A stretch of DNA of 64,000 nucleotides from Antedon mediterranea (Eukaryota; Animalia; Echinodermata), in contig NC_092673.1 of assembly GCF_964355755.1 (NCBI RefSeq), positions 32,795,648-32,859,647 on the forward strand. The letters run 5' to 3'. Under the pieces are notes generated by a model. It had not been told where the DNA came from and did no database searches. It saw nothing but the letters and a program-made list of their open reading frames with translations. Of this stretch, positions 16,694 through 61,191 are shown in pieces (within the stretch, counting starts at the first letter, position 1; each line of letters starts with the position of its first letter). The position numbers and the translations under genes are program-made.

Positions 16694-19600
16694 TTAAATG
16701 TCGTACACTTTTTTCATATCTTCCGTCGCTTCTTTCATTGTAATATCTTTCCATCCGTCTGGTATATCAGCCAATTTACAATCGTAGTAATTAGCAAGTT
16801 GAGTATTGTATTTTGCCATAAACCATTTCCAGAACATCTCTGACTCGCCTGGAAGTGGTTCAATTTTCCATGATGCATAGCGTTCATTCACAGTCCTATA
16901 ATTTCTGTAATTAATCCATTCCTTGTTCGTATGTTTGTTTCTAAAGCGATAATCAGACAATACTGCAGTTGTGCATATGTCTGAGTTCAGTTTTTTAGAT
17001 TCCTCCCATCTATATCCTGCAACTCCTTTCGGTCTGTGACAATCTGTACGATGATGATCATGGATACCATTAAGTTCACATAATGCAAAACAAAATGGAC
17101 ACACCTCCTGGCAAGCTAGTAGATCAGCTGTAAATAAGTCACAACAGGTTGTGTTTATTTCATTGAAAATGCTACTATCATACTCTTTAACTATGGCTTC
17201 TTCAGTTTTCTCTAGTTCAGTTAATAATTCATCGCAAAGTTCTTTCAAATCCAGATCTCTTTCCTCCTCAAAAAACCTAATGTTTGGTTTGACGCATAAA
17301 CCTTTATTTATGCGTTCGAGTAAAGTTGACCACCATGGTTTCATTGTCATAGCACATTCCGATTTTAAAGTAAAGATAGCTTGTTTTAATCCACTTACTG
17401 TTTCATGAACTTTATCACTATGTATTTTTTGTAGTACAGACGTACCGGTTTCATTATTGTGTAAACACATTCTCTCTATTTTTTCAGAGGTGAACGTTCT
17501 GATGCACTGTATTGGATTAGACAAATATGGCACAAAAGATTGAAAATTGCCTTTCTCTGCTATTTCAATCAGCATCCATGCATGAAGAGACATCTTGCTG
17601 GAAAACCCTTTACCCGAACAGTGTCTTAGATAGTCGATTATTCCAAGTTCGCATTTTTTCGGAAGAGATGTTTCAATAGCACTTTTAAGCTCTCGGGATA
17701 TAGTCAATGCCACCTTAACAATTATGTGTAGATCTTTACATTCTTCTTTGAACATTTGCCACAAATCTTTTCTTTTAGACTCCATGTATAGTCTAGGCTC
17801 ATTTTCGCGCTTGTATTGTTCCTGAATTCTTTCTAACCTTGGTATTAGTTCAACCTTGTAAATGCACACGGCTAGTCTAATCTGTCCTTGTTGGCTAATG
17901 GAAACTTTCTCACCTAGTTTTATCATTTTGAGTTCGCATGATAAGGAGCTAAGAAGTTTATGTCCGAATTGTTTAGTGTATTGCTTTCCTTCCTGTGCAT
18001 GGATTGCGATCTCTCTTGTAAGATTCTCTATTATGCGTTGTTTAAAATAATTAGCCTGATTCACATATGCTTTTTTGCTCACGGAACCACCAGTAATGTT
18101 TCCAAGAAATTCAACAGCCCGTCTAATAAAATCTGATTCGCTTTGGCCTAACAACAAATCCGTTTCTTGCACGTTAGTATCAGAAAAAGTGTTCTTTAAT
18201 ACCTTAGCAACTTCCTTTGCGTCGTTTTCTAAGAAATACTCGCCAGTGATTTCTTGAAAAGACTCTTTTATATTTACGTAATCATCACTACTTGGTATGA
18301 CAGAAACCCACGTATTCCAGTGTGTAGCGAATTCCTGTTCAAGATCTTCATCAGAGAGGTGTTCATTTCGATGTTTGTCGGCCAACTCTTTAGCTTTTTG
18401 ATAGATGACTTGTTCCTGCTTCTTAATATTTGCGTCAATGTCCGCTCTTCCAATTATTCTTTTTTGAGTAGATTTAAACACTTCATTCAGTTCCCTTTCA
18501 CTTTCCCTACAAAGATCTTGGAGTTGTATTTCTATCTTGCCTTTCCATTGACACGCTTTTATTTCTTCTTGAAAGTAAGTTGCCATACTTGTCTGAAAAA
18601 AGTCAATGTCTGCCTCTAATTTCTTCAAGTAAGTGTCAATGATGTTCTTACCGTCTTCTTTCATCTTTTCAGCTGTTAGTTTTTTGCATTCGGTTTGAAT
18701 TCCATCGCTGTGCTCTAGTGTGCATATTCTGAATGTACGGGCATGTTTCACAAATTCTACATTCAAAGCAATAAAAGCTTGGATTTCCAGAGAATTTTTG
18801 AAGCTGAATACAAAATTTTCACATATTATGGCATTCCAAAGATCAGTCAGCAATATTGTGAATTCATCTATATGATTAGGTTTGGACTTCTTCATCAATT
18901 CCAATACTTGTTTCTTCACTTTAAGAATGCCTTGGCTGTAACCAGGATTAGGGGGCGCCATCGGTGGTTCTCCTTGCCAAAGAGTGGAAATGTACATTAT
19001 ATGTTCATTTTCTTGAAAATGAATGACGTCAGAAAACGATTCATATCTGTCACTGCAATGCTCTGCTTTAGCTGCAATTGTTGTCATTTTATCTAACTTT
19101 TCTAGCATACTTCTTTTTTGTGTGGTGGTCTTATCATCTGCTGTCACATCAGTGATGTTTTGGTGTACAAATAAGCAGCTTGGATTGATATTAACATTTT
19201 CCATTTTCATAAAAGCATGCACAGCAATCTGAAGTGTGTCCTGCATGTCTGTTGGGTTTTCTCCCATAATATTTATTATGGTAAGATCGCCCAAACCAAT
19301 CACGAGTGTGGCTAGTTCATTGTCATGACTGTTGTTCTGTTGATCACTGTCGAATTCTGGAGATCGCAAACCCTCAGTGTCAACCACCAGAATAAGGTCA
19401 CAGTTTGTTTCTTTTTGTAATTCTGTATCTAATGATACTAGCTGGGCGAAAATACCTTTAGTACATCTTCCGGCACTAACGGCAAATTGTAAACCAAACA
19501 TGGCATTTAACATGGTTGATTTTCCGCTGCTTTGAATGCCTAGTACAGACAACACAAACATCTTTTTATTGCCAATTTGACATTTAAGAGAATTGAATAC

Positions 19601-21444
19601 AGCTTTAATCCAGGTGAGAGGCACGTAAACCGCATCACCGTCCATCAGCTCAATGGGATATCCATGTAGCAACATTTCAGCAGCAACTTCTGGTAAGTGT
19701 GAATTATTAAATTCACCAGTTGACAATTTCAAAGCTGATGACATTTCATAAATTTGTACAATTTCTCTATTGAAATGTTCTAATCCTAGTGATTCACGTG
19801 ACAGTTTCTCTTCAAGTTCATCAAGTTCAGTTTGTCTTGATGTTAATGATGCCTTCGATGTGCCTGGTTTGTTTTTTCTTAGGTTACATAGGGCATTCCA
19901 TTTCTCGATGTACTCTGTACGTATTGGCTGTAACTTTTCAATGCTATACCGATCGGTCATTATCTTAACAAACCCAAAGTAATATTTTCTGTTTATAAGT
20001 GTGTTTGAGAATGAGCCTCTAAACAAGTCATATGTGTAATGGCCATCTCTGTGTTTTCTTAACTGTGTGTGACGTAGGTCTAGTATCTCTTGTTGTAGTC
20101 TATCAACATAGTTTTCAATTTGCATATTTCCTTTTTTTAGTAGCCGATACTTTTCTTTTTTCTTTTCTCCAAGTCGTTTTGTTACCATTTGCACGGGTAG
20201 CTCTTTTTGTTTTCCGCTTTCTACATTATTTATACGGGAAAGCAATGCGTCGGCACTACTTTTCATTTTGGAACAATCTTGTACCAATTCGTCAACGTGG
20301 AAATTCATTTCTTGTGCCTTTTCAATGCACGTCTGGATTCTCTTGTTGTTTGCATTTCTCCGTTTACCTTCCTGAAATTTAGATTCAAGCAATTTCCAAA
20401 TCTCGGTGCTTATTTTCAGCTCGTTCTTATTTGATGACATTGAAAATTGTATTTGTTTCTTTGCCTTATCTTTTTTGCCTTCCATTTTAACAAACACTTC
20501 TTGTAACTTCGGTCCAGGAGAACCATCTAAGATAAAAATCACGTCACCTTTTTGCTTGTACAACGATTCAAGCAACGAGACGTCATCTTGGTTAAAATCA
20601 GCATCAGCAAATGACACAAATACCACAGTAACCACCGAGATAGCGGATAAGAATTGTGTCTGATCTTTAAGCTTAGATGCATTACCTCTCAAATTTATGA
20701 AAGTTAGTGCATCTGAAAAAGTGTGTTTCTGTGTAGGAAGGTACCACGTCATTTCTAATAAACCATTTGTTAGCTTTCGTTTTAAATTACCACCTTTGCA
20801 CCCAGAATTAAAGAAAATGTCATGTTTCTGCTCATTAATGACACAGTTGACAATTTTAGATTTGGAAATGTTAGGTCTTCCTAATCGCAAAGCAGACAAA
20901 ATCGGTAAATCTTCTTCTACCATTGATTTTTCACAAGATAAACCTGAACTTGTTTTCCATTTCTTTGTGATTGTGCTCATTCCCCACACAATCAGTTCCC
21001 ACTCTTTGTCCCGTACGTCCGTGACCGGAATCAGCAACGGAATAGCTAACTGGCACAGCGACAATTTTTCAATAAAAATTTGTCTTAAAAAATTGTCACA
21101 ACACAAAAAAAGTGCTGTTAGTGCATCTAATGGACTTATTTGACTGTTATCATTATCATTTGTTTTTTGGTCTTGTACAACAGAAGAAAATGAAAATAAT
21201 TGATCTTCTTCCTCTTCTTTCGTCGGTTCTTCCAAATCAAAAGATCTTCCTTCGTAGTTACACATCATAATATTTTGCAAAATGTACCATGGAATTTTAC
21301 TTGGATCATCATTGAGGTCTGCTGGTAAAATCTCATGTTTGGAAATTACAAATACGTCTTCACGAGTTAGTCCTCTGGGATGATATTTTGTTAGTCCTAG
21401 ACGTTCAACCACTTGATGTATGTTGGATGTATCTGCCATCTTAT
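16694..21444 (-). CDS. GVIN1: Very large inducible GTPase (VLIG/GVIN1/URGCP family), intact giant terminal exon; 1581 aa from the in-frame ATG at 21439
   Basis: P-loop GIQSSGKST, SAGRCT, DTEG, DNELAT and LW.G.PPMAPPNPGYS motifs, and C-terminal CPFC..C..H..HRPKG and WKWF. Phase-1 acceptor TTTAG|ATAAG at 21444. The symbol denotes family, not orthology. Confidence 0.93.
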
Positions 21445-32242: not shown

Positions 32243-35200
32243 TTAAATGTTGTACAAGTTTTTCATATCTTCCTTTGCTTGTCCATCGTACGTAGGTAAT
32301 ACACTTCCATCCGTCTGGAATATCAACCTCCTTAGCATTGTAATAAGCAGCAAGTTCGGTATTGTATGTTGCCATAAACCATTTCCAGTACATCCAGTGG
32401 TTCAATTGGCAATGATGCGTAGCGTTCATTCACACTTTTTCATTTCTCATGCGTGTGTTCATTGTTAAATCTATGATTTGACAATATATTAACATCCATG
32501 CATGAAGAGACATCTTACTGGAAAACCCTTTACTTAATAAATGTCTTAGATGATCGATTACTCCAAGATGGCATTTCTTTGTAAGTTATCTTTCAATAGC
32601 ACTTGTAATCTCTCGATATATAGCTGATGCGACTTTTACACTCTTCCTTTAAACATTTGCCACAATTCGTCCCTTTGAGACTCCATGTATAGTCTCGGGT
32701 CATTTTCGCATTTGTGTTGCTCCTGCATTCTTTCCAAACTGGGTATCAATTCAACCATGAAATTACATATGGACAGACGAATATTACTTTTTTCCTTAAT
32801 GCAAACGTTTCCTTCTATATTTATCTCTTTAAGATTACTCGATAGTTCTGAAAAAAGGTCAAATCCGATTTGTATAGAGTATTTTCCTCCATTCAGTTTA
32901 TGATTTGAGATTTTTTTTTTTAGTCTATTTAGAATGTCTTTTTTAAAGGAATTTGCGACAAACAAATAACGTTGTTTGTTCATGAAACCATACCCTGTGT
33001 TCATAACCCGAAATGATCTAAAATACAAATCCTTTTCAACTATTTCAGTTTGGGAAAGGTCAGACTGCAATACACAATTAACGTCTGACTGATGATGTCG
33101 TAAGTAAAATTCTCTTAAAATGCTTTCAAAAGACCTTCTTACATCTGCGTAATCATCAACAATTGGTATGGCACAAACCCACTCAATCCAGTTTTTAGCA
33201 AACTCACGCTCAAGATCTGCATCAGATAGTTGTTTACCTCGATACACGTCGGCCAGGTCCTTAGCTTTTCGATAAATGAATTGCATGTCAATGTTACCGG
33301 TAGCTCTTACAATTCTTTTATTTCGAATAGATGTAAATTCATCCCTCAGATCTTTTTTAATTTCTTTACCAAGATTTTGGAGTTGTAGCTCTATTTCAAC
33401 TTTCCATTGACATGCATTTTTTTCTTCTTCTAAATACGATTTCATATTTGCTTCAAAATCACAGATGTCTTTCTGTAATTTCTGTAAGTAACTGTCAAAG
33501 ATTTTTTCTCCATCTTGTTTTATCTTCTCAACGGTTAGTTTCTTACATTCATTTTGAAGACTGTAGCTATGTTCCAGTACGTTTCTTCTGAATGTACGGG
33601 CATGCCTCACATATTCTGCATTCAAAGCATTATAAGCTTGAATCTCAAGATAATTTTTGAAACTGAATACAAAATCTTGACATAATATTGCTTTCCAGAG
33701 ATTGGAAAGCAGCGTTATAAAATCCACGATACATTTAGCATTAGTATCCGCTATAAATGTCAAGACTTTTTTTTTACTTGAAGAATGCATTTGCTGTAAC
33801 TAGGATTAGGTGGTGCCATTGGTGGATCTCCTTGCAAAAGGCTGGAAATGTACAATATATGTTTGTTTTCTTGAAAATTGATGACATCAGAAAACGATTC
33901 ATATTTTTCACTGCAATTTTCTTCCTTGGCTGCAATTGATGTGATTTTATCCAACATTTCTCGCATACTTCGTTTTTTAGCAGTATTCAAAGCAGATTCT
34001 GTGACATCAGTGACGTTTTGGTGTACAAATAAACAGTTAGGACTGACTTTAACATTATCCATCTTCATAAAAGCATTAACAGCAATCTGAAGTGTGTCTT
34101 GCATGTCTGTTGGATTTTCTCCCATAATATTTATTATGATAAGATCACCTAAACCAATCACAAGCGTGGCTAGTTCATTGTCACGGTAGTTGGCCTGTTG
34201 AATGCTAGCAAATTCAGGAGATCGCAAACCTTCAGTGTCAACCACCAGAATGTAGTCACATTGTGTCTCTTCTCTTAAACTTTTATCTAATGACACCAGC
34301 TGAACGAATATACCTTTAGTACATCTGCCAGCACTAACAGAAAATTGTAAGCCAAACATGGCATTTAACATGGTTGATTTTCCACTACTTTGAATTCCTA
34401 GTACAGATAACACAAACATTATCTTGTTGCCAATTTGTTCTTTAAGGGAATTGAACACGGCTTTAATCCAAGTTATAGACACGCAGCCTGCATCACCATC
34501 CATCAGTTCAATGGGATATCCCTCTAGTAACATTTCAGCAGCAACATCTGCTAAGATAGAGTTTTCGGTGTCACTTGTTGATAATTTTAAATCTGATGAC
34601 ATTTCGTAATCCTGTCCAATTTCTCTATTAAAATGTTCTAATCCTAATGATTCCCGTGATAGTTTCTGTTCAAGTTCATCAAGTTCATTTTGTCTTGATT
34701 TTAATAATGCTTTTGACGTTTCTTGTTTGGTTTTTCTATTGTTGCATAATGCGTTCCATTTTGTAATGTAGTTCTCACGTATTGGTTGTAACCTGCTAAT
34801 GCTAAATCCATCGGTCATTATCTTAACAAACCCAAAGAAATATTTTCTTTTTAAAGGTGAGTTATTGAATGAAGCTCTAAACATTTTTTTTTTATTTTAT
34901 TTTATTCAATTTTCAGGTACAACAATACATGACAACACAGCGGTGCAACCCTGAGGATTGCCATGAGTGCAAAGCACTATCGAGATGGCTCTCCATATAC
35001 TGCACTAGAACATATAAGACAAACATTATACACAAGATGCTGGAGTTGTAAATTGTCATGAGAAAAAAACCCTGACATATGACAGGACTTGAACCCATGA
35101 CCCTTAGATTGGTAGCCAAGCATCATAACCACCAAGCCACAGCTCCACTCACTTGTGTGTACAACAATCACGTCTTTGTTGTTTAATTGTTTTTGACGTA

Positions 35201-36511
35201 GGTCTTCTATCTCTTTCTTTAGTCTATCAACGTAGTCTTCGATCTGCATCTTTTCTTTTCTTTGTAGCCGATGTTGTTCTTTTTTCGTCTCTCCAATTTT
35301 CACTGTTGCCATCTGCAAGGGCAGCTCGTTTTGCTTTCCCTCTCGAGTTACGCGCTCGAGCAATTTTTTGGCACTCTCTTTCGCTTCCAAACAATCTTTC
35401 GTTTCGTCAACGTGGTAATTCATTTTCTTTGCAACTTCAATGCACATCTCGATACTCCTAAAATCATTCTGACTAATTAAATTAACTTTAAGTAATCCCC
35501 AAATGGCTGAGGCTATTCTCAGCTCGTTCATGTTTGATGATTTTATAAAGTCTACTTGTTTCTCCTTATATTTATCACATTTCTTTATTGTTTGTAACGC
35601 CTTCATAAAATCTTTTCCTGGAGATCCATCTAAGATGAAAATTACGTGACCCTTTTGTTGGTATAATGATTTAAGTAATTGGGTGTGGTCTTCGTTAAAA
35701 TCAGCACAGGAAACAAAGGCAATAGTGACTTGTGATATCTCGGATAAGAAATTCGTCTGACTTTTAAATGTCAATGCATTTCCTCGCAAATTTATAAAGT
35801 TTATTGCATCTGAAAAAGTACCCGGCTTTGTGGGAAGGTACCATGCCATTTCTAATAAGCCATCTGATAATTTTTGTTCTAAATTACCACCTTTGGACCC
35901 AGAATTAAAGAAAATGTCATGTTTCTGCTCATTAAGGACATAGTTGACAACTTTAGATTTGGATAGTTTTGGTCTTCCTAACCGCAAAGCAGAAACAATC
36001 GGTAACCTTTCAACCACCATTGATTTTTGACAAGACAAGCCTGAACTCGCTTGCCACTTCTTTGTGATTTTTCTCATTCCCCACACAATCATTTCCCATT
36101 CTTTGTTAGGTACGTCCGTAACTGGAATCAGTAACGGAATAGCTAACTGACATATTGACAATTTTTCAATAAGAATTTGTCTTAGAAAATTGTCGCAGCA
36201 CAAGTAAATAGCTACTAGTGCATCTATTGGGCTTAATTGATTTGACACTTCTTCTTCTTGTAGAAGAGAAGATATTGAGAAGTATTGGATTTTGTCTAAA
36301 TCAAAAGATCTTCCTTCTTAGTTACACATTATAAGATTTTGCAACATATACCATGGTATTTTCCTTGGGTCGTCATTCAGGTCATCTGGTGAAATATAAT
36401 TTTCTGAAACTTCCAATACTTTTTCACGAGTTAAGTTTCTGTGAGAATTTTCTTGTAGTCCCAGATGCTTAACCACCTGCTGATGCATGTGCAATCTCTC
36501 TTTCTTCTTAT
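32243..36511 (-). pseudogene. GVIN1: Decayed VLIG/GVIN1 exon (copy 2)
   Basis: Homologous to copies 1 and 3. Lesions: TAA at 36318-36320 replacing Tyr of CNYEGR, SINE insertion at ~34884-35153, frameshifts at ~33770 and ~32640, and a large deletion after SLHAWML (~32480). Confidence 0.92.
34884..35153 (-). mobile_element. tRNA-derived SINE inserted in VLIG copy 2
   Basis: Pol III A box TGGCTTGGTGG (35129-35139), B box GGTTCAAGTCC (35085-35095) and an A-rich tail. It is absent from copies 1 and 3 at the homologous position. Confidence 0.85.
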
Positions 36512-37040
36512 CTAAAGAAAATAAAAAATAATATTGTATTTCAATATTTTAACTTGAGGTTTAATGGAAGTTGATTAAAAGTGCACATTAAAATCGTTTA
36601 GAGACCATATTGCATTATTTTTCTTTCAAATGTAGCACACATAAACTTTATATAATAACAACAACAACCAGCAACGCGGGAACGATTTTAGAAATGGGGG
36701 GTGGGGGTGTATCCATGATTTTAAGTAGGGGATGAGGCTTAGACACCAAATATTTGAGCGACAGGCGCCTACATACGCCTGTACTGAAAAATCTTCTTGA
36801 TATTAGTGTATACATTTATTTTAAGTTCCTTTTATCATATACATGCATATCTATATATTATAAAAGAAAGAGAAAATATGAATATTTTATGGATGCTATA
36901 TTTTTATACTTTAGAGAGTAATCCATCAGGTAAACAGTATGGTACAGATAGGTTCGAACCCATGACTATCATATGCTATTCCGATATCATCATTACACCA
37001 CCACTCGCTGGTATATACAGCACCCGCCGCGATTCCAGAC

Positions 37041-38120
37041 GGTCTGTGGAGCCGTGAAATGTGGAAAAAGTCACATTTGTGCAAACAACCACATTTGTTC
37101 AAACATTTTACCTTCAAATGTGCAAACAACCACATTTGTGCAAACATTTTATCTTCAAATGTGCAAATCTGTAAACATTCATTACCCGCAAATGTGCAAA
37201 CATCACGCCGTTAAATGTAAAAACGATCAGTTTTGACGTTAAATGTGCAAAAGGTATTCTACAAATGTGCAAATCATTTATTCAGTCAAATTCCTATTAC
37301 ATTTTATATTTTTGGTTCGTAGGTCTTTCAGAGTAGAAATAACAATAGGAGAATGATTCTAATAAATTTAAAATGCTCAATATCATAATAACTAATTATA
37401 CTGTTGTATTTTATTATGATCAAAGGCTTTAACCCGTCTAAGTCAAATTCAAGTCGACCCCAAGTCAACTCGCCCTGAAGTCAACTCGGCCTCACGTCAA
37501 CTAGGCCACTTTAAAGTATGAAACGCAAAGTGCAAACGAATGGGACAAAATAAGTCTAATGAACAGAAGAAAAATAATAAAAACGAAGTACGCATGTTAT
37601 AGGGATGAATATTAGAATGAAATGAATGTGAATGTTAGTTGACCGATTAGTTTTTGGCCGAGTTGACGTACGTGAGGCCGAGTTGACTTGAGGCCGGGTT
37701 GACTTCAGGGCGAGTTGACTTGGGGCCGACTTGAATTTATTCGAGGCGATTTAGAGCCTTTGATGATAATAAAATACAACAGTATAATTAGTTATGATAT
37801 TGAACATTTTAAATTTATTATACTCTTTTTCCTATTGTTATTTCTACTCTGAAAGACCTACGAACCAAAAATATAAAATGGAATAGGAGTTTGGTTGAAG
37901 AAATGCTTTGCACATTTGTAGATTACCTTTTGCAAATTTAACGTCAAAACTGATCGTTTTTACATTTAACGGCGAGATGTTTGCACATTTGCGGGTAATG
38001 AATTTTTACAGATTTGCACATTTTAAGGTGAAATGTTTGCACAAATGTGGTTGTTTGCACATTTAAAGGTAAATTGTTTGCACAAAGTGACTTTTTGCAC
38101 ATTTCACGGCTCCACAGACC
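37041..38120. mobile_element. ~1.08-kb palindromic foldback element
   Basis: GGTCTGTGGAGCCGTGAAATGTG... has its reverse complement ending at 38120. The arms are ~460 bp with AAATGTGCAAA and AAGTCAACTCG subrepeats around a short central spacer. Confidence 0.9.
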
Positions 38121-39035
38121 CTCACTACAACGTCTCACTATTTTGTTCTACAGATTTGTCTCTGTTTTCAAGACCCCAATTTTTGCATTCATCATCGATT
38201 CCATCTTTCATAAAAAAGTAATCACATGTAACTTATTTAAATTATCTCTATACAACGGGTTTTCAGAAGTTCTCTGAACCTATCGATTTGACGCTTTTTC
38301 TGCGACTGGCAGTGGCAGCAGAATCTAAAAATTAATATATTTTAGAACACTCTATGGCACTGTTATTATTCGATACTGGGCCTACTGTATAAAACATTTC
38401 ATATTTTAATTTATCAGCATTCGAAAACTGTATCAAACATGTATTGCTTTAGTTATCAACATTCGATATACTGTAGGCCTACTCTAATAAATGCTTTTCT
38501 TTTACTTATTACTGTATGCCTTTGTAAGTGTCTGCTTACCGGACCGTATCGTTTCCATTGCGAATGATTCGAAGATAGGCCTTGTCATATTATTATGTTG
38601 TGATTCTCTGTGTTTAGATAAGGATGCTTTAGACCAGGTCCGCCTTATATTATTAGCCAATCAAAATCGTATAATTTTTGGAGGGAAAATATTATCCTCC
38701 TCTGAAGCCTAAAATGTGCATGTCCAGTATAAAAGTGGAATGTAATAGATATTAAGGAGAAGAGAGAATAAGATCAGAGTAGATAAATGGAAAGATGATA
38801 AAGAAAATATTAAGGCTTGACTGGTAGTGGTAGAAAGATGTATTAATCGAATTACAAGGAATAAAAGTTCTAGTTGAGTTAAATATACTTTTTGTATGAG
38901 TTATCATTCTGTGACAGCTGTGTACGTCGCGTGGAGTTATATACGCCTGAGAAAGCTCGGAACCAACTAAAATAAATTCACTACAGGCCTACACATATAA
39001 TTTTTCGAATAAAAAGAAATTCATATGGTACTTAC

Positions 39036-39561
39036 CTTTAGCAAGTAGTAGATGCTTTGCACGTTCATTAAGACGACTTGAAAATGTCTCTACTTTGTCT
39101 TGTTTATCTCCTAATTTGTTGTTACTCTCTAAGTGAAAAACTACATCCCACATATTATGAAAGCCAACATGTCTCAGTTTGTAGTAGGCAATAACTTCAT
39201 CCATATCCTCTTTCTGAACTTGTTGTAAGGCTTTAAACAGCCGTTTTAGATATGGTGATAATGGCTGTATATCGTCAGAATTCTGAACTTTGTTTATCTT
39301 AATATAGTCAAGTACAAGATTTTCAGCAGCCTTAACTTGTGTTAACTCCGCAATCTCCAACAACAGGTTGACATTAGTAGGTAAGATGTCACCTTTCCGC
39401 TCAAGTTTATTGAACAAATCATGTGCTATTAAACGATCGTCTAATTCTCCGAAAGGTAGGTGATCGCATAAGCAGAATTTGAGCAAACGATACTGATCAC
39501 CCTTGTAGTGTTTACCCAGATTAGCGTTTAATTCCGTAAAAATCGTATTCAAATCTGCCAT
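39036..39561 (-). CDS. Coding exon for a death-fold protein, tandem death-effector-domain (DED)-like, 175 aa, ending in a phase-1 donor
   Basis: DED-like pattern LKF.LCDHLP..L.....DLF..LE..G.I...NV.LL.EI, then a second helical repeat. Acceptor TTTTACAG| at 39581, in-frame upstream TGA, and donor AAG|GTAAGT at 39036. Domain assigned by eye. Confidence 0.75.
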
Positions 39562-40234
39562 TTTATTTCATTTTTGTTTTGCTGTAAAAACAAAAGAGGA
39601 GATATATTAATTAATGTAATCAACATCATTTAATTCAAGTGTTACAATATTATACTCAAAAGAATACAAGGATTTGCATCGGCGGTGAAATAAAATGACT
39701 ATTCGACGCGCTTACCTGTCCTAAAGCACTGTTGTAAATCAAACAAACACGCTCTTTAAATCCGATGTCTGTTGCCACGACCCGCTATAGAATCAAAAGT
39801 TATTTTTAAAAATCAGGATCATAACAAAACGTATCCGTGTATAAATCGTATGCGCATTATAATTGCTCTAATGTCATGTCTCTGTCGAGGAATAATTGAA
39901 AACATTAATTGTAGAATGTGTATTTACAAAAATAAACAAAGATATAAAAGAAAAAGCAATAATAAAAGCATTTGGATAATTGGGAATTGAGGAAGCGAAC
40001 AATTTCTGCAGTTGAGGCCTTTTGTCAGATTATTTATATGGGTGTTGGTACGATGATTATTATTATAATTTTGAAAAAGTTTTAGAAACAATTGAAAAAA
40101 TTTAATCAAAGTTGTGGTTGGGATGGTTTATCAATGTAATTAATAAATCGTATAAATCAAACCACTCACAATAATTATAAATCACACGGATTTTTCCTGA
40201 CAAACTGAAAGTTATTATAAAATTGTAATAACTC

Positions 40235-42060
40235 TTGTTTTACAAAATATCGTCAGATTTCATTGCCCCTGAAATATTTAAAATTTTTGAAAAAGTAATT
40301 TACAACCAATTATATTTGCATTTTCAAATAAATAAATTATTTTACAGCAGCCAATATGGTTTTCGGACAAGTCATTCAACGGAATTAGCTGCACTTGAGC
40401 TTGTAGATAAAGTTATTCAAGACATGGACAATTATGAAATACCAATTAACATATATTTGGACCTATCAAAAACGTTTGATACTCTGCATCTTAATGTTGC
40501 ACAAATTGAATCACTATGGCCTTCATTTTACTTCACTTAAAGTCCCATTCCCTACGTTTTTTAGATCTAATCTAAGTAGGCCTACTAAAGTATTTAAGTA
40601 AATTAATTTAAGTAAATAAATAATATTTGGTCCTATTGAGATAACTTTTTTCGTCTTAAAACGGTCAAAAATGTGAAAATAAGTCGATTCAAATAATGTT
40701 AACGGCCCGCTATAAATCCCATGCATTGCGCGCGGATTGATATTTTTGGTTTTATCCTGTAATTTACCCACTTTTGATCGATCGTGAGGCCAAAACAAAT
40801 GGAAATTTCAGAGAAAATACCGGGTTTATGTCAACGGAATCTGACAAAAACAGAAGTAAGACAATTAATGCAGCAACTATACAACGTCAGGCTAGGCCTA
40901 TAGCTAGCGTACGATGTTCGTACGCTACCGATGTTTACCATGTACCAGCTAGGCTGGCTAGGACCGTCCACGAGAGAACATTTACCGCGAGCTACTTTTT
41001 TTTATATTTTTTATTGAACACTTTCATAGGCCTATTTAAATTTAAAAATAGCTTAAAATAATAACACTTTCTTATTAATAGTAGTACACAATATACATTT
41101 CTCTTAAGAACAAAATATAAATAATTTCATAATGTAATAAATATAAATCTACTTTTTCTTTTCTCTTAAAAACAAAGTCTATAAATAATTTGTTGTCAAT
41201 TTTTTTCTTTTTAAGCATATTTCCACTAAAAATTATTTAATTAAACATAAAACTTTCTTATTCAAATAAATAGTTATTACTTACGCAGATGATAAAAGTT
41301 CTATAAATAATTCAAGATTAAAAAAACATTATATAAAAAACAGTGCTTTTATTGAACACTTTCATATTTCAATTTAAAAAATAGCTTAAAATAATAACAC
41401 TTTTTAAATAATAATAATATATAATATACATTTCTCTTAAGAACAAACTATAAATAATTTCATGATGTAATAAATATAAATCTACTTTTTCTTTTTTCTT
41501 AAAAACAAAGTCTATAAATAATTTGTTGTCAATTTTTTCTTTTATAGCATATTTCAACTAAATAATTTAATTAAACATAAAACTTTCTTATTCAAATAAA
41601 TAGTTATAACTTACTAAATAAACAGATACCGCGAGCTACTTAGGTAGTGCATTGTTCCTTTCGTTTTATCATAATTTACCATAAAACGTACATTTAAGAC
41701 AAGGAATGGACCTGGTTTAATGTTTTTAAAGTAAAATATATATATATATGCATTATTTTTACAAAACGTCACAAACTGTAGGGAAGGGGTCTTTAATCTT
41801 ATGAAAGATTATTTAACTAATCGTAAACAATATGTGGACATTAATAATAATGGAACTCAATCTGGTACTTTACAAATAACTAGGTGTTCCACAAGGATCA
41901 GTACTGGGTCTGCTTTTGTTTATCATATACATATACATGCAGAAGATACCACACGTTTAAGCACCATGATCAGAACATGTAATCCAACCAGGAATCCAAC
42001 GAACAACACTCTCAACATTGAACTTAATAAAGTTAGTGAATGGCTAAAGTGTCTACATAT
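40235..42060 (+). mobile_element. Degenerate CR1/L2-group LINE RT fragment split by a MITE
   Basis: QYGFR..HSTELA, YLDLSK.FDT, YLTNRKQYV and a frameshifted GVPQGS.LG. The reading continues across the TTAA site. Confidence 0.85.
40541..41792. mobile_element. Kolobok-like non-autonomous element with TTAA TSD
   Basis: TTAA|AGTCCCATTCCCTAC ... GTAGGGAAGGGGTCT|TTAA. It interrupts the LINE fragment cleanly. Confidence 0.85.
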
Positions 42061-45258: not shown

Positions 45259-48200
45259 TTAAATGTCGTACAATGTTTTCATATCTTCCGTCGCTTCTTC
45301 AATTGTAATATCATTCCATCCGTCTGGAATATCAGCCTCAGTACAACTGTAGTATTTAGCAAGTTGAGTATTGTATTTTGCCATAAACCATTTCCAGAAC
45401 ATCTCTGACTCGCCTGCTAGTGGTTCAATTTTCCATGATGCGTAGCGCTCATTCACAGACCTATAGTTTCTGTAATTAATGTATTCATCATTCGTATGTT
45501 GATTCCTAAACCTATAATCAGACATTACCGCAGTTGTACATAAATCTGGGTTGAGTCTGTTAGATTTCTTCCACCTGTATCCGGCAACACCTTTTGGTCT
45601 GTGGCAGTCTGTACGATGGTGATCATGTGGACCATTAAGATCGCATAGTGCTCTACAAAATGGACAAACCTCTTGACAAGCTAGTAAATCAACTGTAAAA
45701 AAGTCACAACAGGATGTGCTTATTTCATTGAAAAGTAGTATACTATCATAATCTTTAGTTATAGTATCTTCGACGCCGTTTAGTTCCAATAATAATTTAT
45801 CGCTAAGCTCTTCCAAATCCAGGTCTCCTTCTTCATCAAAAATCCGAATGTCTGTTTTAACACATACAGCTTTATCGATGTGTTCAAGTAAGGTTGACCA
45901 CCATGATCTCAGTGTGTGAGCATCTTCATTACGTAAACTAGTGATAGCTTGCTTTAATCCAGTTACTATTTCATGAACTTTACAACTGTATATATCTTGT
46001 AGTACAGAAATACCGAATGTGCCATCCTTCTGCAAACACATATTCTCTATTTGTTCAGAAGTGAACGTTTTGATGCACTGTATTGGATTAGACAAATACT
46101 GCACAAAAGAGTTGAAATTGCCCTTATCTGCTATTTCGATCAACATCCATGCATGGAGAGACATCTTACTAGAAAATCCCTTACTTGAAGAGTATCTTAG
46201 ATGGTCAATTACTCCAAGTTTGCATTTCTCTGGAAGCGATGTCTTAATAGCACTTGTAAGCTCTTGAGTTATAGCCAATACCAGTTTCACAATTATGTGG
46301 AGGTCTTTACATTCTACTCTGAACATTGACCATAATCTTTCCTTTTGAGACTCCATGTACAATCTCGGGTCACTTTCCCGTTTGTATTGTTCTTGCATTC
46401 TTTTTAAGCTGGGTAATAATGTAACCTTGAAATTACACACAGCTAGTCGGATGTTTCCTTTTTCCTTAACTTTAACCTTTTCATCCATTTTTATCTCTCC
46501 AATTTCACATGATAGTGTGCTAAAAAGCTGAAATCCTAGTTGTTTCGTATAACCTCCTCCATTCTGTGCATGATTTGAGATTTGAGTTTGCAGTGTTTCT
46601 AGAATTTGCTGTTTAGTGCAATTAGCCTGATTCACATATGTTACCTTACTTGTGTAACCAATCCAATGAGCAATTCTTCCAGCCACAGTGCCAAAATACA
46701 AATCTCTTTCAACAACTTCAGTTTGAGAAAAGTCAGATTGCAATGCACGGGTAACTTCTGATTTATGGTTTTCTAAGTAATACTCTTCGGTGATTCTTTG
46801 AAAAGACCTTTGTATATCTACAGGATCATCAAGTCTTGGTATTGCAGAAACCCACGCCTTCCAGTTTTTAGCAAACTCACTTTCAAGATCTTCATCAGAG
46901 AGTTGTTGATTTCGATACACATCGGCTAGTTTGTTAGCTTTTCGATAGATATCTTGTTCTTGCATTTAAATGTTGGCATCAATTTCAGCTCTTCGAATTA
47001 TTTTGTTTCTAATAGATGTAAATAGATCCATTAGTTCCTTTTTAACTTTCTTACACAGATCTTCGAGTTGTAATTCCATTTTACTTTTCCATTGACATGC
47101 CTTTGTTTCTTCTTCAAAATAAGATGCCATGTTTGATTGAAAACTGCCAATGTCTCCCTCTAATTTATGTAAGAACGTGTCGAGGATTGCTTCCCCATCT
47201 TCTGTCATCTTTTCAGCTGTTAATTTCTTACATTCAATTTGAAGTCCGTGGCTGTATTGTAGTGCATTTCTTCTGAATGTACGGGCATGTTTCACATATT
47301 CTGCATTTAAAGCATTAAATGCTTGGATCTCGAGGGAATTTTTGAAACTGAATACAAAATCTTGACATAATATTGCTTTCCAAAGATCAGATAGCAGTGT
47401 TGTGAACTCATCTACACTTTTGGGTTTTACATTCTTAAGGAATTCTAGGACTTGTTTCTTTACCTGAAGAATGCATTTGCTGTAACCAGGATTGGGAGCG
47501 GCCATCGGCGGATCTCCTTGCCAAAGGCTAGATATGTACATCACATGTTCGTTTTCTTGAAAATGAATTACATCAGAGAACGATTTGTATTTTTCACTGC
47601 AATTCTCTGCATCTGCTGCAATTTTTGTGATTTTATCCAACATTTCTCGCATACTTCTTTTTTGTGTCGTATTCAAATCAGATGCTGTGACATCAGTGAC
47701 GTTTTGGTGTACAAATAAACAGCTTGGGTGGATATTAACATTATCCATTTTCATAAAAGCATGTACCGCAATTTGAAATGTGTCTTGCATGTCTGTTGGA
47801 TTTTCTCCCATAATGTTTATTATGGTGAGATCACCTAAACCAATTACAAGTGTGGCTAGTTCATTGTCACGGTAGTTGGCCTGTTCGATGCTGCCGATTT
47901 CAGGAGACCGCAAACCTTCAGTGTCAACTACAAGAATATAGTCACATTGTGTGTCTTCTTTTAAACTTGTATCTAACGATACTAGCTGGGCGAATATACC
48001 TTTAGTACATCTGCCGGCACTAACGGCAAATTGTAAACCAAACATGACATTTAACATTGTTGATTTTCCACTACTTTGAATGCCTAGTACAGATAACACA
48101 AACATTCTTTTATTGCCAATCTGGTCCTTAAGTGAATTGAACACGGCTTCAATCCAAGTGAGGGGAACGTGGACTGCATCACCATCCATCAGTTCAATGG

Positions 48201-49967
48201 GGTATCCCTCTAGTAACATTTCAGCAGCAACTTTTGGTAACTGACTTTTTTCTTCTTGTTTTTCATTTAGATCTGATAACATTTCGTAATTCTGTCCAAT
48301 TTCTCTATTAAAATGCTCTAATCCCACAGACGTACTAGATAGCTGTTTTTCAAGTTCATCAAGTTTATCTTTCATTTTTTGAAGTGATGCTTTTGATGTA
48401 TCTGGCTTCTCTTGTTTGTGGTCACATAATTCGGTCCATTTCTGTATGTACTCTTCACGTATTGGCTGTAGCTTTTGAAAGCTATATCTATCGGTCATTA
48501 TCTTAACAAATCCAATGAAGTATTTTCTTTGAATAGGCTCGTTTTTAAATGATTCTCTAAACAACGTATATGTGCAATTACTGCTGCGCTGCCTGTGTAG
48601 TTGCAACTGTTTACGACGTAGGTCTTTTATTTCTTTCTTGACGATTTCAACGTACTTTTCAATTTGCATATTTTCCTTTCTTAATAATTGATGTTGTTCT
48701 TTTTTCATCTTTCCAATTTCCACTGTTACCAACTGTAAGGGGAGCTCCTTTTGCTTTCCTTCTTTATCTATGCGCTTAAGCAACATGTTGGCAATTGTTT
48801 TTGCTTCTGAACACTCTTTTACGATTTCGTCAACGTGACAATTTAATCTCTTTGCTACTTCCATGCACGCCTCGATACTCTTATAAACACTTTCTTGCTT
48901 ACTTTCTTTAAAGTAAGATACAAGCAAGTTCCAAATGTCTGTACTTATCCTTTGTTCGTTCATGTCTGAGTACATAAGATACTGCACTTGTTTTTTTAAG
49001 TTTCTGAATTTTTTTTTAATCCCACTTAAGGTGCTTTTTAGAACGTTTTCAGGAGTTCCGTCTAAGATAAAAATTACGTGACCCTTTTGTCTATACAATG
49101 ATTCAAGCAACGAGGCGTCTTTGTCACTAAAATTAGCGCTGGAAACAAATGCAATAGTGACCGTTGATATATCAGTTAAAAATTGTGTCTGAAGTTGGAA
49201 ATCCGATGCATTTCCTCGCAAATTTATGAACGTTAGTGCATCTGAAAAAGCATTCGTGTTTTTCTGTGAGGGAAGGTACCATGCTATTTCTAGTAAGCCA
49301 TGTGACAATTTTCGTTCTACATTGCCACCCTTGCACCCATAATTAAAGAAAATATCATGTTTCTGCCCATTAACGACATAATTAACAACCCTAGATTTAG
49401 ATATTTTAGGTCTTCCTAATCGCAAAACAGACACAATCGGTAACTTTTCTACCACCATTGATCGTTCACAAGATGAACCTGAACTTGTTTTCCATTTTTT
49501 TGTGATTGTGCTCATTCCCCACACAATCATTTCCCATTGTTTGTCTTCTACGTCCGTCACTGGCACCAGTAATGGAATAGCTAACTGACATATCGAAAAT
49601 TTTTCAATTAAAATTTGCCTTAAAAAGTTGTCACAACACAAGAAAATAGCTACCAGTGCATCAATTGGACTTATTTTACTGTTTTCGTTACTTTGATCTG
49701 ATTTTTCTTTAAGAATAGAAGAAAGTGAAAATGATTGATTTTTTTCTATGTCAAAACATCTTCCTTCATAGTTACACATAATCAGATTTTGCAGCATGTA
49801 CCAAGGTATTTGGCTTTGTTTATCACTGAGTTGTTCTGGTGAAATAACTTCTTTGGAAACTACAAATACATCTTCACAAGTTAGTTTTCTTGGATAGTTT
49901 TTCTGTAGTTTTAGATATTTAATGTGGAATGATACCTCTGTATTCCTCGGTGAAGGTATAGTTTTAT
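45259..49967 (-). CDS. GVIN1: VLIG/GVIN1 giant exon (copy 3), full length apart from one in-frame TAA at 46966-46968
   Basis: ORFs 46966-49992 and 45259-46965 abut in the same frame (DANI*MQEQ versus DANIKKQEQ in copy 1). GTPase motifs are intact. Phase-1 acceptor TTTTTCAG|ATAAA at 49967. Confidence 0.88.
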
Positions 49968-54188: not shown

Positions 54189-54261
54189 TTGCTTCTGTTA
54201 ATGTTTCTTCCACATTTACAGCATCATTTTCAAAACCAGGTAAAAGTTCGTCATCTGGCAT
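54189..54261 (-). CDS. 73-nt acidic linker exon (MPDDELLPGFENDAVNVEETLTEA), phase 0 to phase 1
   Basis: Acceptor TGTTTATAG| and donor A|GTTAGT. It bridges the phase-0 kinase donor and the phase-1 VLIG3 acceptor exactly. Confidence 0.72.
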
Positions 54262-55167: not shown

Positions 55168-56034
55168 CTCTATAAAATCTTTGACTTTAATCTTTAATGT
55201 AATAGACAAGTCCTGCATGGTTTGCAGTATATCTAAAATACTTGGCCTTTTCATTCTGTCTGTCTCCCAACAACTATGTAGCATATCCTTTAACTTAGAG
55301 GGCATTTCATCTAGCGGGTACATACCATCCACCCTCTCAGTTTTATCCGCTTCAAGCAAGGTCCTCATTTCCCATATCACAACACCGTAAGAATATATGT
55401 CTGAACGCTTTGATACCTTTATCTTTGACCCACGGCCTTTAAAAAAAGCCTCAAAGTTTTCAGGAGCCATCCATGGAAGAGAACCAGTATATGTAGTAGT
55501 AACGGTCTTATCAGTTAGGCAGGAAATTCCAAAGTCACAAACTTTCAAATTATGTTTATCAGTAATTAAAAAATTTGGTGATTTGATATCTCGATGAATG
55601 ATATCAAGTTCATGAAGATACTGTATTGCAAGAGCGCCTTGCCGGGTCCAGGTGAAAAATTTGTCATCCTCAAGAAGTTGCTGCTGTTCTCGTTTCTGGC
55701 TTAAATAATGAAATAATGACCCATTTGCTGCATATTCCATTATCATACAATCCATATGATCCTTCTTACTAACCCCTAGAATCTCAGTTATGAAATTTCT
55801 ACCAATGTGTTTTTTTTCTTCGTCAGCTTTAATTTTTCTTAATGTAACAATTTCAATTTCTCGAAAATGGTTGAGACGTTTAATTGCAACTGGCATATCT
55901 TTTTTAGTTTTCCACACCCCTTTCAACACACTGCACGTTCCACCATGTCCAATAAGTTCTCCAAATTCAATATCATTACATTGTATCTCTAAAATCTTAG
56001 GATATGGTTTTAACACTGTTTCATTACTTGCCAT
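55168..56034 (-). CDS. TKL-group (MAP3K/MLK/ZAK-like) protein kinase exon, 289 aa
   Basis: GHGGTCSV, VAIK, HRDIKSPN, DFG, GSLPWMAPE and SDIYSYG motifs. Acceptor CTTTGCAG| at 56056, in-frame upstream TAA, and donor GAG|GTGTGT at 55168. Confidence 0.92.
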
Positions 56035-56828: not shown

Positions 56829-57416
56829 ATGTCACGATCTACACGAGCAAATACCAAGCCCGCTGAATTCGAAAGCGAAGACCAGCTATCGTTTGAATCG
56901 TTTGTTAAAAAAAAACTTGAATCGATTTTAAAAGGCCAAGAATCTAATAAAGCTGAGCTTTACGAAGCAATATCGTTTAATTCTGCTAGAATAGATGCCC
57001 TTGAAGATGAAAACAAGGAATTAAAAACGACTGTCACAGAGCTGACAACAACAGTTGCTAATTTACAAGGTAGTACAACTGACCTGTTGGCAAAAATTAA
57101 CAAGACGGAACGCTTTTCTCGTCGTAATAACGTAAGAATTGTTGGTGTGGAAGAGAACACAAAAGAAAACTGTAAGTTAATCTTTGAGAACATTCTTTCC
57201 GATTTTTTCACACTCGATCCCAGGCCAACAATCGAACGGGCCCACCGAGATGGTAAAAGTATGAACGGCAAGCCAAGGCATATCATTGCCCGTTTTCTCT
57301 CATACGCTTCTAAGATTGAAGTTATGAAACAACGAAGTTCTGCGCTAGATAGCCAGAAATTTTATATCATAGATGATCTTACTGCTGCCGATCTACTGGA
57401 AAAAAAGAATCTCGGA
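56829..57416 (+). pseudogene. LINE ORF1 (coiled coil plus RRM, L1 ORF1p-like), C-terminally truncated
   Basis: Heptad region, RRNNVRIVGVEE, IERAHR and PRHIIARF motifs. Confidence 0.85.
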
Positions 57417-59685
57417 TCACTTTCCTGTTTTCTTGTTAGTACATAAATCAGAACCTCTCCAACACCTGAAACCTAAATCAAAATATATATACATAAAAAA
57501 AGTCAATGATATTTCAATTTCTGCCTTAAGTAATGATTTGTCAAATGTTGACTGGACTAGTATTTATAACTCCAATGAACCCAATGAGGCATACGCTTTA
57601 TTCAACGACATATTTAGTACATTATATAATAACAACATTAAAACCACTCGTTCCAGACGCAATATTCGGAAAGAAAAAAAACCTTGGATAACTAAATGCT
57701 TAATTAAATCTATCGACAAAAAACACAAATTATATAAAACATTTCTTATATCTAAAAAGCAAAAGGACAAAGATAAATATGTTAAATATCGAAATGTACT
57801 TACCAAAATCCTTCGTACTGCCCAAAAGAATTACTTCAGTGACAAATTTGAATTCCATAAAAATAACATCCAAAAAACCTGGCAAACAATAAATGGAGTC
57901 CTTGGCAAGAAATCTCGTAAACCGTTTCCTTCTCACTTTATTAACAATGACATTGAATTAAATAATCCTCAACAAATTGCAACTGAATTCAATAATTATT
58001 TTACTAGTATAGGGCCAAATTTAGTTAACAAAATACATGTGTCGGATAATGATAATTATACTTCTACCTTACCTCGTCCATGTGTGCACTCTCTCTTTCT
58101 TAGTCCTGTAACCGAACATGAAGTTGTCAGTATAATACTTTCCCTCAAAGATAATAAATCTCCTGGGTTTGATGGGTTTTCCAATAAAATTATTAAACGA
58201 GTTTCTAATTTTATATGCAAACCCTTAACTCACATTTTTAATACTTCTTTTCAAACCGGTATTTTTCCTGATTCTTTTAAAATAGCTAAAGTCATCCCTA
58301 TCTACAAGAAAGAAGATCCTCATTATTTCAATAACTACAGACCAATCTCCCTACTTCCTTGTTTCTCAAAATTAATTGAAAAAATAATGCATAATCGAAT
58401 TTCTTCCTTTTTAACTAAACATAACATTTTATTTAAAGGCCAATATGGTTTCAGGAAAAAGTATTCAACAGATCTTGCTTTATTAGATATTTTTGACAAA
58501 ATTACAATTGCCCTGAGTAAAAATGAGTTTTCTGTTGGCATTTTCCTTGATTTATCTAAGGCCTTCGATACTATTAACCACGATATTTTAATTCATAAAC
58601 TTTCAAATTACGGTATCAGAGGCCTTCCTTTAAAACTAATTAAAAGCTACCTTTCCAATCGTGTTCAGTTTACTTCCTTAAATAATTTTCACTCTTCCTA
58701 TTCCCGTTTAACCTGTGGTGTTCCCCAAGGATCGATTCTTGGACCACTCTTATTCCTGATTTTTGTTAACGATATACCAAACAGCTCTAAATTACTAAAT
58801 TTTATCTTATTTGCTGACGACACAAATATTTTTTTCTCTCATCCTAAATAAAATACCTTGTTTAAAATTGTCAATGATGAGTTACTTAAAGTTTCAAATT
58901 GGCTCAAACACAATAAATTAACTCTTAATACATTCAAAACGAACTATATAATATTTTCTAAACGTAAAATTTCAAATTCTTTAAATGAACAAATATACAT
59001 TGATAATAAAATGAACAAACGAGTTAATGAAACCCAATTTTTAGGAGTAACCATAGATGCCTCTCTGACTTGGAAACTACATATAAATAAAATCAGTAAT
59101 CTAGTTTCTAGAAATGTTGGAATATTGAACAAATTAAAACATATCTTCCCTCAAAAAACCTTATTAACCCTTTATAATACTTTAGTTTTGCCTTACCTTT
59201 CTTATGCCAATTTATGTTGGGCAATTACTCTAGATAAATTTAATACGTTATGCCCCTGGACAAGTCTAGAGAAAACTCAAATTGACCGCCTTTTTAAACT
59301 ACAAAAACGTGCACTTCGGATTTGCGCGGGAGAATCATTTAGAGCCCATACAAAATTACTTTTTATAAGATTTAACGTTTTAAACATTTATGATTTAAAT
59401 AAATTACAAGTTGCCTCATTTATGTACCGTTTATCTAACAATTTACTGCCTTCACATTTTAATGCTTTATTTACAAGAATTGACGAACGCCATTCCTATA
59501 AAACCCGATCCTCTGTTAACAATTATATCCTTGATAATTTAAATGTTAAGGCTCGACGATTTTCTATGTATTATTTTGGTCCCAAACTTTGGACTTCACT
59601 CTCAAATGAACTTAAACAGAAATCTTCCTTTTCTAGTTTTAAATCTAATTTCAAACACAAAATGGTGTCAGAATATGCTACATAA
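57408..59685 (+). pseudogene. LINE ORF2 reverse transcriptase, with the endonuclease deleted and an in-frame TAA at 58849-58851
   Basis: Begins at SDHFPV (end of the APE domain). Contains KSPGFDG, NYRPISLL, QYGFR, DLSKAFD, GVPQGSILGP and FADDT. Confidence 0.92.
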
Positions 59686-60191: not shown

Positions 60192-61191
60192 ATGACAGGA
60201 TATGAAGATACCCGATGTGAAACTGTTCAACCAGAAAATTCGCCATTATGGGAGAGAAATAGTTACTATACTACCCCGATGAGACCGGATGTGTCTCAAA
60301 GCCTAGAAACTCCGGCCAGGCCAACCTCGATTACTAAGACCAGTTCAGGGGTATAATACAGCGGTAAAACCATTATTACCAGTGCCAAAATCAGTACAAA
60401 TTTACACCCCGGCACACCAACTAAAAGGAGTACCAATATTTACGGGACAATCACCCAACCTACTGATTGAGGATTGGACCAGAGATGTTCAGCATATCTT
60501 AAGCTGTAGCAACATGCCTAGTCACCTACAGTTTTCAACAATAGTTAGAAATCTGGGAGGAACTGCACGGAAGCTGGTGTTGAACTTACCGAGAGAATGC
60601 CAGACACCAGAAAGAGCACTCAAAGAACTAAAAGAACAATTCGCAAATGTGTCCTCTGGTGACCCCTTATCTGATTTCTACCAGAGAACACAAAGACAGG
60701 GTGAGTCTGCTAGTTTTTATGCCATTGAACTAGAAGCAGTATTACGAGATGTGGAGGAGGAACTTGGGCGAGGTCCCATGTATGAAAGGGATCGAATGTT
60801 GACACAACAATTAATGCGGGGAATGTACGACCAAGAAGTAGTTGGACGAATAGCGCCCATGAGACCGAGGTCTATGACATTTCGTTCTGTTCTATCAGAG
60901 ATAAGACTACTAGAACGAGAACGAAAGCAGCAACCGTGCGCACCACACCTAGTAGCCCCTCCCATAACTCCGACAAATGTCAAAGGTTCCGGTGAGGACG
61001 CGTCGATGCACAGATTAGTTACGGAGATGGAGAGGAAAATAAGCTTTCTTACCGCTAAACTTGAGGCAAAGGAAGCGGCGCAGCAACGGCCCAACACGTC
61101 ACAACCTAGGGCACTGGAATGCTACGGCTGCGGCCAAATTGGACACATTCGACGATTTTGCCCAAATGCGCCGACGGGAAACGGCAGGTAA
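60192..61191 (+). pseudogene. gag: Gypsy gag with CCHC zinc knuckle; 5' part out of frame
   Basis: Q..GES...Y capsid motif and CYGCGQIGHIRRFC. The reading from ATG 60192 stops near 60356 in a different frame from ORF 60382-61191. Confidence 0.85.
61176..61182 (+). promoter_or_regulatory. -1 ribosomal frameshift slippery heptamer G GGA AAC
   Basis: X XXY YYZ pattern in the gag frame just before the gag stop. pol lies in the -1 frame. Confidence 0.8.

Follow-up and report, generated by a model that had tools for sequence, protein, structure and literature searches.

An intact exon for a predicted tandem death effector domain lies in frame upstream of a decayed VLIG GTPase copy in the crinoid Antedon mediterranea

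We describe a locus in a 64,000-nucleotide stretch of the Antedon mediterranea genome (contig NC_092673.1, positions 32,795,648 to 32,859,647 of the forward strand; hereafter the window, in whose coordinates all positions are given), where an intact exon encoding a predicted tandem death effector domain (DED) stands upstream of a broken VLIG/URGCP GTPase copy, VLIG2, and joins it in frame. The explanation that we prefer, and to which we give about an even chance, is that a tandem-DED-VLIG fusion died recently and that the intact DED exon is left over from it. The window is AT-rich animal DNA with three VLIG/URGCP GTPase copies (VLIG1, VLIG2 and VLIG3), all on the minus strand, and the three VLIG exons have an acceptor and its phase in common. 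The DED exon and VLIG2 consist of the following features:

39562..39581, minus strand: predicted 5' untranslated start of the DED exon, following a candidate acceptor AG at 39583-39582; it contains a TGA in frame (39570-39568) and a 2-codon mini open reading frame
39036..39561, minus strand: coding part of the tandem-DED exon, from ATG 39561-39559; 526 nt, or 175 codons and one further nucleotide, ending in phase 1
39034..39035, minus strand: splice donor GT of the DED exon, in the consensus context AAG/GTAAGT
36512..39033, minus strand: intron predicted to separate the DED exon from VLIG2, containing high-copy repeats
32243..36511, minus strand: VLIG2 exon, a broken copy, with its acceptor at the exon start, 36511
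36318..36511, minus strand: first 64 codons of VLIG2 (the first codon split), up to a premature TAA (36320-36318)
32243..36317, minus strand: remainder of VLIG2, with URGCP and URGCP_GTPase recognizable, 7 frame-breaking indels and up to 2 more stops

A preliminary description of this locus had noted that the 175 codons plus 1 nt of the DED exon join VLIG2 in frame, that the first stop follows 64 VLIG codons, and that VLIG2 has at least five lesions while the DED exon and its splice sites have none. We reproduced the joint, in which the split codon G/AT gives Asp and is followed by the VLIG stretch quoted there, and we obtained the same conceptual product of 239 amino acids (175 + 64), with the stop at codon 240 (TAA 36320-36318). 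The frame of the DED exon is open, and the donor and the VLIG2 acceptor (TTTATTTTCTTTAG/AT, exon from 36511, with a good pyrimidine tract) are intact; the count of five lesions in VLIG2 proved conservative, as set out below. If the intron were retained, translation would stop 15 codons past the DED exon. Since the in-frame TGA at 39570-39568 falls between the candidate acceptor and the ATG, the DED exon itself starts translation and is not an internal coding exon in that frame. Should the locus be transcribed and the predicted joint be spliced, the product would consist of a tandem DED and lack an active effector domain. We also considered the DED exon as the tail of a gene built like P0022 and P0024, with a kinase and a tandem DED, that was split by the insertion of VLIG3 between the two, and rejected this idea, both because of the in-frame TGA within the exon, 9 nt 5' of the ATG, and because the kinase in the window is only 25-26% identical to the P0022 and P0024 kinases.

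Compared with intact VLIG1, VLIG2 carries at least 8 disabling lesions, identified with a three-way DNA alignment and tblastn (indels below are from the alignment unless stated otherwise):

36320-36318, minus strand: premature TAA, where VLIG1 has TAC and VLIG3 has TAT
near 35184, minus strand: loss of 1 nt
34884-35150, minus strand: insertion of 267 nt, with the read depth of a high-copy repeat
near 33769, minus strand: loss of 1 nt
near 32644, minus strand: loss of 19 nt
at 32488, minus strand: loss of about 604 nt
near 32396, minus strand: loss of 14 nt
32289-32295, minus strand: gain of 7 nt

Two further frame-corrected stops (32588 and 32442) hinge on the alignment. VLIG2 matches VLIG1 in six tblastn pieces with five frame changes among them (46-77% identity per piece), and it lacks the uninterrupted single-exon frame of ~1550-1600 codons found in VLIG1 and its paralogues, yet pieces of its open reading frame are still recognized by the URGCP (PF25496, E 4.8e-75) and URGCP_GTPase (PF25683, E 2.7e-115) profiles. 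Contigs from two of the mapped runs (X3 and X5) link 34851 directly to 35184, omitting 332 bases that include the 267-nt insertion, and this joint may reflect a haplotype, or else a paralogue, that lacks the insertion.

VLIG2 seems, from these lesions and its substitution pattern, to have died recently. Its branch dN/dS of 0.48 is barely raised relative to those of VLIG1 (0.40) and VLIG3 (0.26), and there are few stops among its lesions (1-3 stops and 7 indels in 4269 nt), which together argue for a recent death. The 1-3 stops suggest ~0.01 neutral changes per site. We discarded a date from the branch dN/dS (~0.057 neutral changes per site) as too noisy, since even intact VLIG1 has a ratio of 0.40.

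The lesions are visible in the way that the locus has been annotated. P0003, a 1217-aa model named 'interferon-induced very large GTPase 1-like' from Antedon mediterranea, is 100% identical to our translation over the DED exon and maps to 39561-39037, 36512-36420, 36146-35163, 34821-33778 and 33643-32639. Its three internal GT-AG introns (273, 341 and 134 nt) bypass the TAA, the insertion and a frameshift, and they fall inside what VLIG1 has as a single exon. We read P0003 as a forced model that gives no evidence of function.

The preliminary description had proposed a tandem DED, and the fold predicted by AlphaFold2 and compared by Foldseek is indeed a death fold. The Pfam DED profile (PF01335) on its own reaches only 25.8 bits on P0001, below its gathering cut-off of 35.9, and covers residues 18-72, the first DED only; a single-sequence search of the PDB with the module likewise gave only weak matches to caspase-8. 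An AlphaFold2 model built from a 25-sequence family alignment has 10 helices (pLDDT 93.8, pTM 0.84) and shows two consecutive helical death folds packed like those of solved tandem DEDs. Its best Foldseek matches were the caspase-8 tandem DED, caspase-8/cFLIP assemblies, a vFLIP and cFLIP-S (176-183 columns, TM 0.70-0.73), and in a viral library the best structural matches were vFLIPs; a second structural aligner likewise supported both DEDs. Furthermore, the family profile found caspase-8 prodomain chains with an E of 4.7e-4. We conclude that the module is predicted to adopt the tandem DED fold of the caspase-8/FLIP type.

This module belongs to a family that is expanded in crinoids and shuffled among immune-type partners. 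HMMER, run exhaustively over 1.84 billion representatives (E<=1e-3), matched 69 of them, most over the entire 170-aa length of the module; the Pfam DED profile was found at E<=1e-3 in 43 of these 69 and reached its gathering score in 11. The Pfam partners of the module include NACHT/LRR, Roc-COR (sometimes accompanied by a death domain), protein kinase, caspase, TIR, TRIM-NHL, ZU5-UPA, ubiquitin and MAM, and P0002 has four near-identical copies of the module in one protein. When the species of 20 representatives were looked up, 17 were Antedon mediterranea, 2 were Anneissia japonica and 1 was a metagenome. The closest paralogue of the DED exon is P0004 (60% identical); a word-indexed search found no short proteins like the DED exon, but it also missed P0004, so that its negative outcome carries no weight. 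No second copy of the DED exon, including upstream of VLIG1 or VLIG3, was found in the window by tblastn or blastn. Contigs that are 85-94% alike (X1, X3, X4) cover parts of the DED exon (39200-39590) with a summed depth of up to ~40x single copy, and such a number of contigs implies that the genome has many more DNA copies or fragments of the module than the protein models show.

The other VLIG exons of the window and their N-terminal partners, which are as follows, bear on whether the DED exon and VLIG2 were once a single gene:

16694..21444, minus strand: VLIG1 exon, intact, with a 1581-codon open frame from its own ATG (21439) and the homologous phase-1 acceptor at the exon start, 21444
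46966..49966, continuing to 45259, minus strand: VLIG3 exon, with the same phase-1 acceptor as VLIG1 and VLIG2 and a single in-frame TAA (46968-46966)
55168..56034, minus strand: protein-kinase exon of the annotated kinase-VLIG3 model (Pfam and annotation mapping)
54190-54261, minus strand: mini-exon of the same model, P0085 (annotation mapping)

The annotated VLIG3 model (P0085, 1313 aa) has the kinase exon (56034-55168) and the mini-exon joined at the phase-1 acceptor and ends at the TAA. VLIG paralogues elsewhere also have N-terminal extensions, which are acidic-repeat in P0078 and hydrophobic in P0090. The ATG that starts VLIG1 is AAG at the matching position of VLIG2. The use of the same acceptor on VLIG3 and the paralogues, together with this AAG, favours as the more probable history one in which DED exon and VLIG2 were truly fused at one time.

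We propose that the big VLIG exon gained the DED exon at its conserved phase-1 acceptor, where VLIG3 has its kinase exon and paralogues elsewhere have further N-terminal additions, and that the coding sequence of a lineage-specific tandem-DED-VLIG fusion gene likely began with the DED exon. In the living gene the tandem DED would have coupled the VLIG2 GTPase to DED partners, for example a tandem-DED caspase of A. mediterranea. The VLIG2 exon would then have decayed recently, leaving a DED exon that could now yield at most a 239-residue DED-only protein, and the intactness of this exon may be explained without selection.

A number of observations weigh against this account, the first of them bearing on the fusion itself. 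The phases of the DED exon and the VLIG2 acceptor would match by chance in ~1 of 3 cases, the module is present in only 1 of 49 VLIG homologues (P0003), and that the fusion was ever functional is something that we infer. If the two had never been fused, a stand-alone DED gene, alive or dead, would lie upstream of a tandem-duplicated VLIG pseudogene, the phase match would be coincidental, and the joint model would be a merger made by annotation. This fits the presence of URGCP domains in just 1 of the 69 module-bearing representatives (again P0003), the plainly forced character of the annotated model with its three internal introns across lesions, and the inheritance of the phase-1 acceptor by all VLIG copies, including VLIG1 with its own ATG; in addition, an in-frame ATG of VLIG2 just 5' of the conserved HQQVV stretch could be a former start of its own. 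We nevertheless consider separate genes quite unlikely, given the AAG of VLIG2 at the VLIG1 start and the N-terminal coding exons that VLIG3 and paralogues elsewhere carry on the same acceptor. Moreover, when the window was searched by tblastn with 72 family proteins, namely all those retrieved as far as P0074 except P0001 and P0003, no further exon matching the partners of the module came up; the sole other matches were to the kinase open reading frame, 25-26% like P0022 and P0024.

The remaining objections concern whether the exon is merely left over. Its start codon and donor and the VLIG2 acceptor are all intact, and since the premature stop falls in what is the terminal exon of VLIG1, nonsense-mediated decay would probably spare the transcript. 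Scored with a profile from which it was left out, the DED exon reaches 210.6 bits and ranks 8 among 90 full-length module copies, and it retains 25 of the 26 columns that are conserved at >=80%; a Leu at position 105, taken up below, is its one deviation and its only sign of decay. Its terminal branch (0.44) is about equal to that of its sister P0004 (0.40; support 99/99). Finally, short models of <=260 aa with the entire module account for 14 of the 69 representatives, which suggests that a stand-alone tandem-DED protein is a normal form in A. mediterranea. These observations, along with the predicted fold and the presence of the tandem-DED caspases P0062 and P0064 in the same species, are what one would expect if the DED exon were a working tandem-DED-only gene, encoding 239 aa, or ~190 aa if the intron is retained, and acting as an adaptor or in the manner of cFLIP-S and vFLIPs. 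Such a product could join or cap DED assemblies of the crinoid tandem-DED caspase and related proteins.

Several of our results speak against a working gene, which we regard as possible but rather unlikely. VLIG2 has 8-10 lesions in its 4269 nt; at that density one expects 1.0-1.2 lesions in the 526-nt exon, and the probability of zero is ~0.29-0.37, so chance remains a sufficient explanation of intactness, as the preliminary description had allowed, and no selection is needed. The good profile score likewise has little power if VLIG2 died recently, because simulated neutral drift of ~1% lowers the score by only ~5 bits. Furthermore, the DED exon alone has a Leu at position 105 (CTA), where all of the other module copies (63/63) have Arg, and human caspase-8 also aligns an Arg at this position. 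A paralogous fragment that is 94% identical to the DED exon has CGA at codon 105; there are 8 visible differences between the two, of which 6 change the residue and 2 are silent. The loss of the Arg may also fit a change of role. Taken together, the profile fit, the branch, the lesion count and Leu105 do not decide whether the DED exon is under selection. The only exon-identical protein among the 669-2130-aa proteins searched is the 1217-aa model that bypasses the lesions, which also argues against a working DED-only gene.

The region expected to drive such a gene is unpromising as well. An upstream non-coding exon with a donor at ~39716, proposed earlier, lies in a repeat that has 190-730x the single-copy depth in run X3, with a fragment of a reverse transcriptase directly upstream (the two features at 39702-39753 and 40232-40540). 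The depth of the repeat and the adjoining reverse-transcriptase fragment imply that the expected promoter region of the DED exon consists of mobile-element DNA. None of the runs listed is recorded as RNA, and all of the mapped runs consist of contigs that cover introns and repeats too. Contigs identical to the exon were found in X3 and X4 only (one sample), and run X1, which we guess to be RNA, had no contigs that are >=95% alike over 39000-39760, its paralogue-like pieces being at 86-94% only.

The preliminary description offered two outcomes for the DED exon, a FLIP-like short product or splicing to VLIG1. Both routes are open on the sequence, although no DED-VLIG1 protein is annotated. The first would make the exon a FLIP-like regulator that arose when its gene was truncated: with the GTPase half dead, a self-standing 239-aa tandem-DED protein would have been left, which the loss of the Arg would have made a cap or decoy for the crinoid tandem-DED caspase. 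We consider this unlikely. The known regulators of this kind, cFLIP-S and the viral FLIPs (MC159 and the herpesvirus vFLIP/K13), are tandem-DED-only regulators of caspase-8 assembly with which the module has 13-19% identity. In contrast to them, the predicted 239-aa product would come from a truncated GTPase fusion and not from a caspase-like gene, and it lacks the Arg common to its own family and human caspase-8. The locus also differs from the caspase-8 prodomain, since no caspase domain follows the tandem DED and the partner is a broken VLIG GTPase exon.

The second route, in which the donor of the DED exon skips dead VLIG2 and splices to the VLIG1 acceptor at 21444, is very improbable in our view. 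The VLIG1 and VLIG2 acceptors are homologous and alike in sequence, and the joined frame stays open through all of VLIG1, to give a conceptual tandem-DED-VLIG1 protein of 1758 aa. However, the intact VLIG2 acceptor with its good pyrimidine tract is 15 kb nearer, no such isoform is annotated (P0003 being the sole exon-identical protein among those of 669-2130 aa that were searched), and the annotated VLIG1 model begins within its own exon.

The shuffling of the module has a known counterpart among invertebrate deuterostomes: death-fold 'connector' hybrids (DED-NACHT, DD-NACHT and similar) were described in amphioxus and sea urchin (PMC2575513). As in that work, we see a DED module that has expanded within a lineage and been shuffled onto many immune-type partners, here NACHT/LRR, TIR, kinase, caspase and Roc-COR. 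The crinoid case differs in that the unit is a whole tandem DED, carried on one exon at this locus. A VLIG partner is not mentioned in that paper, where 'GTPase' has 0 occurrences. Literature searches, judged from their listings, found no paper about a DED-VLIG fusion. With its URGCP and URGCP_GTPase domains VLIG2 resembles the very large GTPases of the VLIG/GVIN/URGCP group, but unlike other VLIGs it has at least 8 lesions and a tandem-DED exon upstream, the module being absent from the 48 other homologues. We conclude that tandem DED-VLIG is a new partner combination within known domain shuffling.

The function of VLIG GTPases is still poorly understood, and natural fusions of a VLIG with a tandem DED or with a kinase would point to testable partners and pathways, namely death-fold assemblies and kinase signalling. 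The locus shows a whole tandem-DED module exon-shuffled within the crinoid immune-type repertoire, and it adds a new partner to those known from the 'connector' shuffling in amphioxus and sea urchin. If the fusions were real, crinoid VLIG GTPases would have been wired directly to death-fold and kinase signalling; a regulator that did arise by truncation would give echinoderms a counterpart of cFLIP-S and the viral FLIPs. As the fused copy is broken and any use of the DED exon is conjectural, the present value of the locus is mainly that of a flagged annotation problem (the 1217-aa model that bypasses lesions) and of a lead for RNA and population data.

Some further observations concern the other VLIG copies. 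Apart from its TAA (46968-46966), at the site of which VLIG1 reads AAG, VLIG3 has ~1579 open codons, and this stop may mark a very recent loss, or it may be polymorphic or due to misassembly. The VLIG1 protein as annotated (P0076, 1523 aa) begins at an internal Met (21265) inside the exon, and the open frame of VLIG1 has an ATG (21439) right after the conserved acceptor, the position where paralogues start. In precomputed Pfam annotation, MACPF (PF01823) occurs beside VLIG domains in P0099, P0118, P0119 and P0120, from frog, oyster and other assemblies, and is another N-terminal partner of VLIGs.

The window also contains repeats at both of its ends. A 39-bp satellite array occupies 1-2218, with 5 copies at 1-199 and ~46 copies at 430-2218 that match at 95-96%, and it accounts for the open reading frames that overlap there in every frame. 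At the other end, retroelement coding sequence on the plus strand (57373-58851 and 60307-63998) consists of a reverse-transcriptase open reading frame followed by gag-like (PNMA, zinc knuckle), reverse-transcriptase, RNase H and integrase sequences, and runs off the end of the window.

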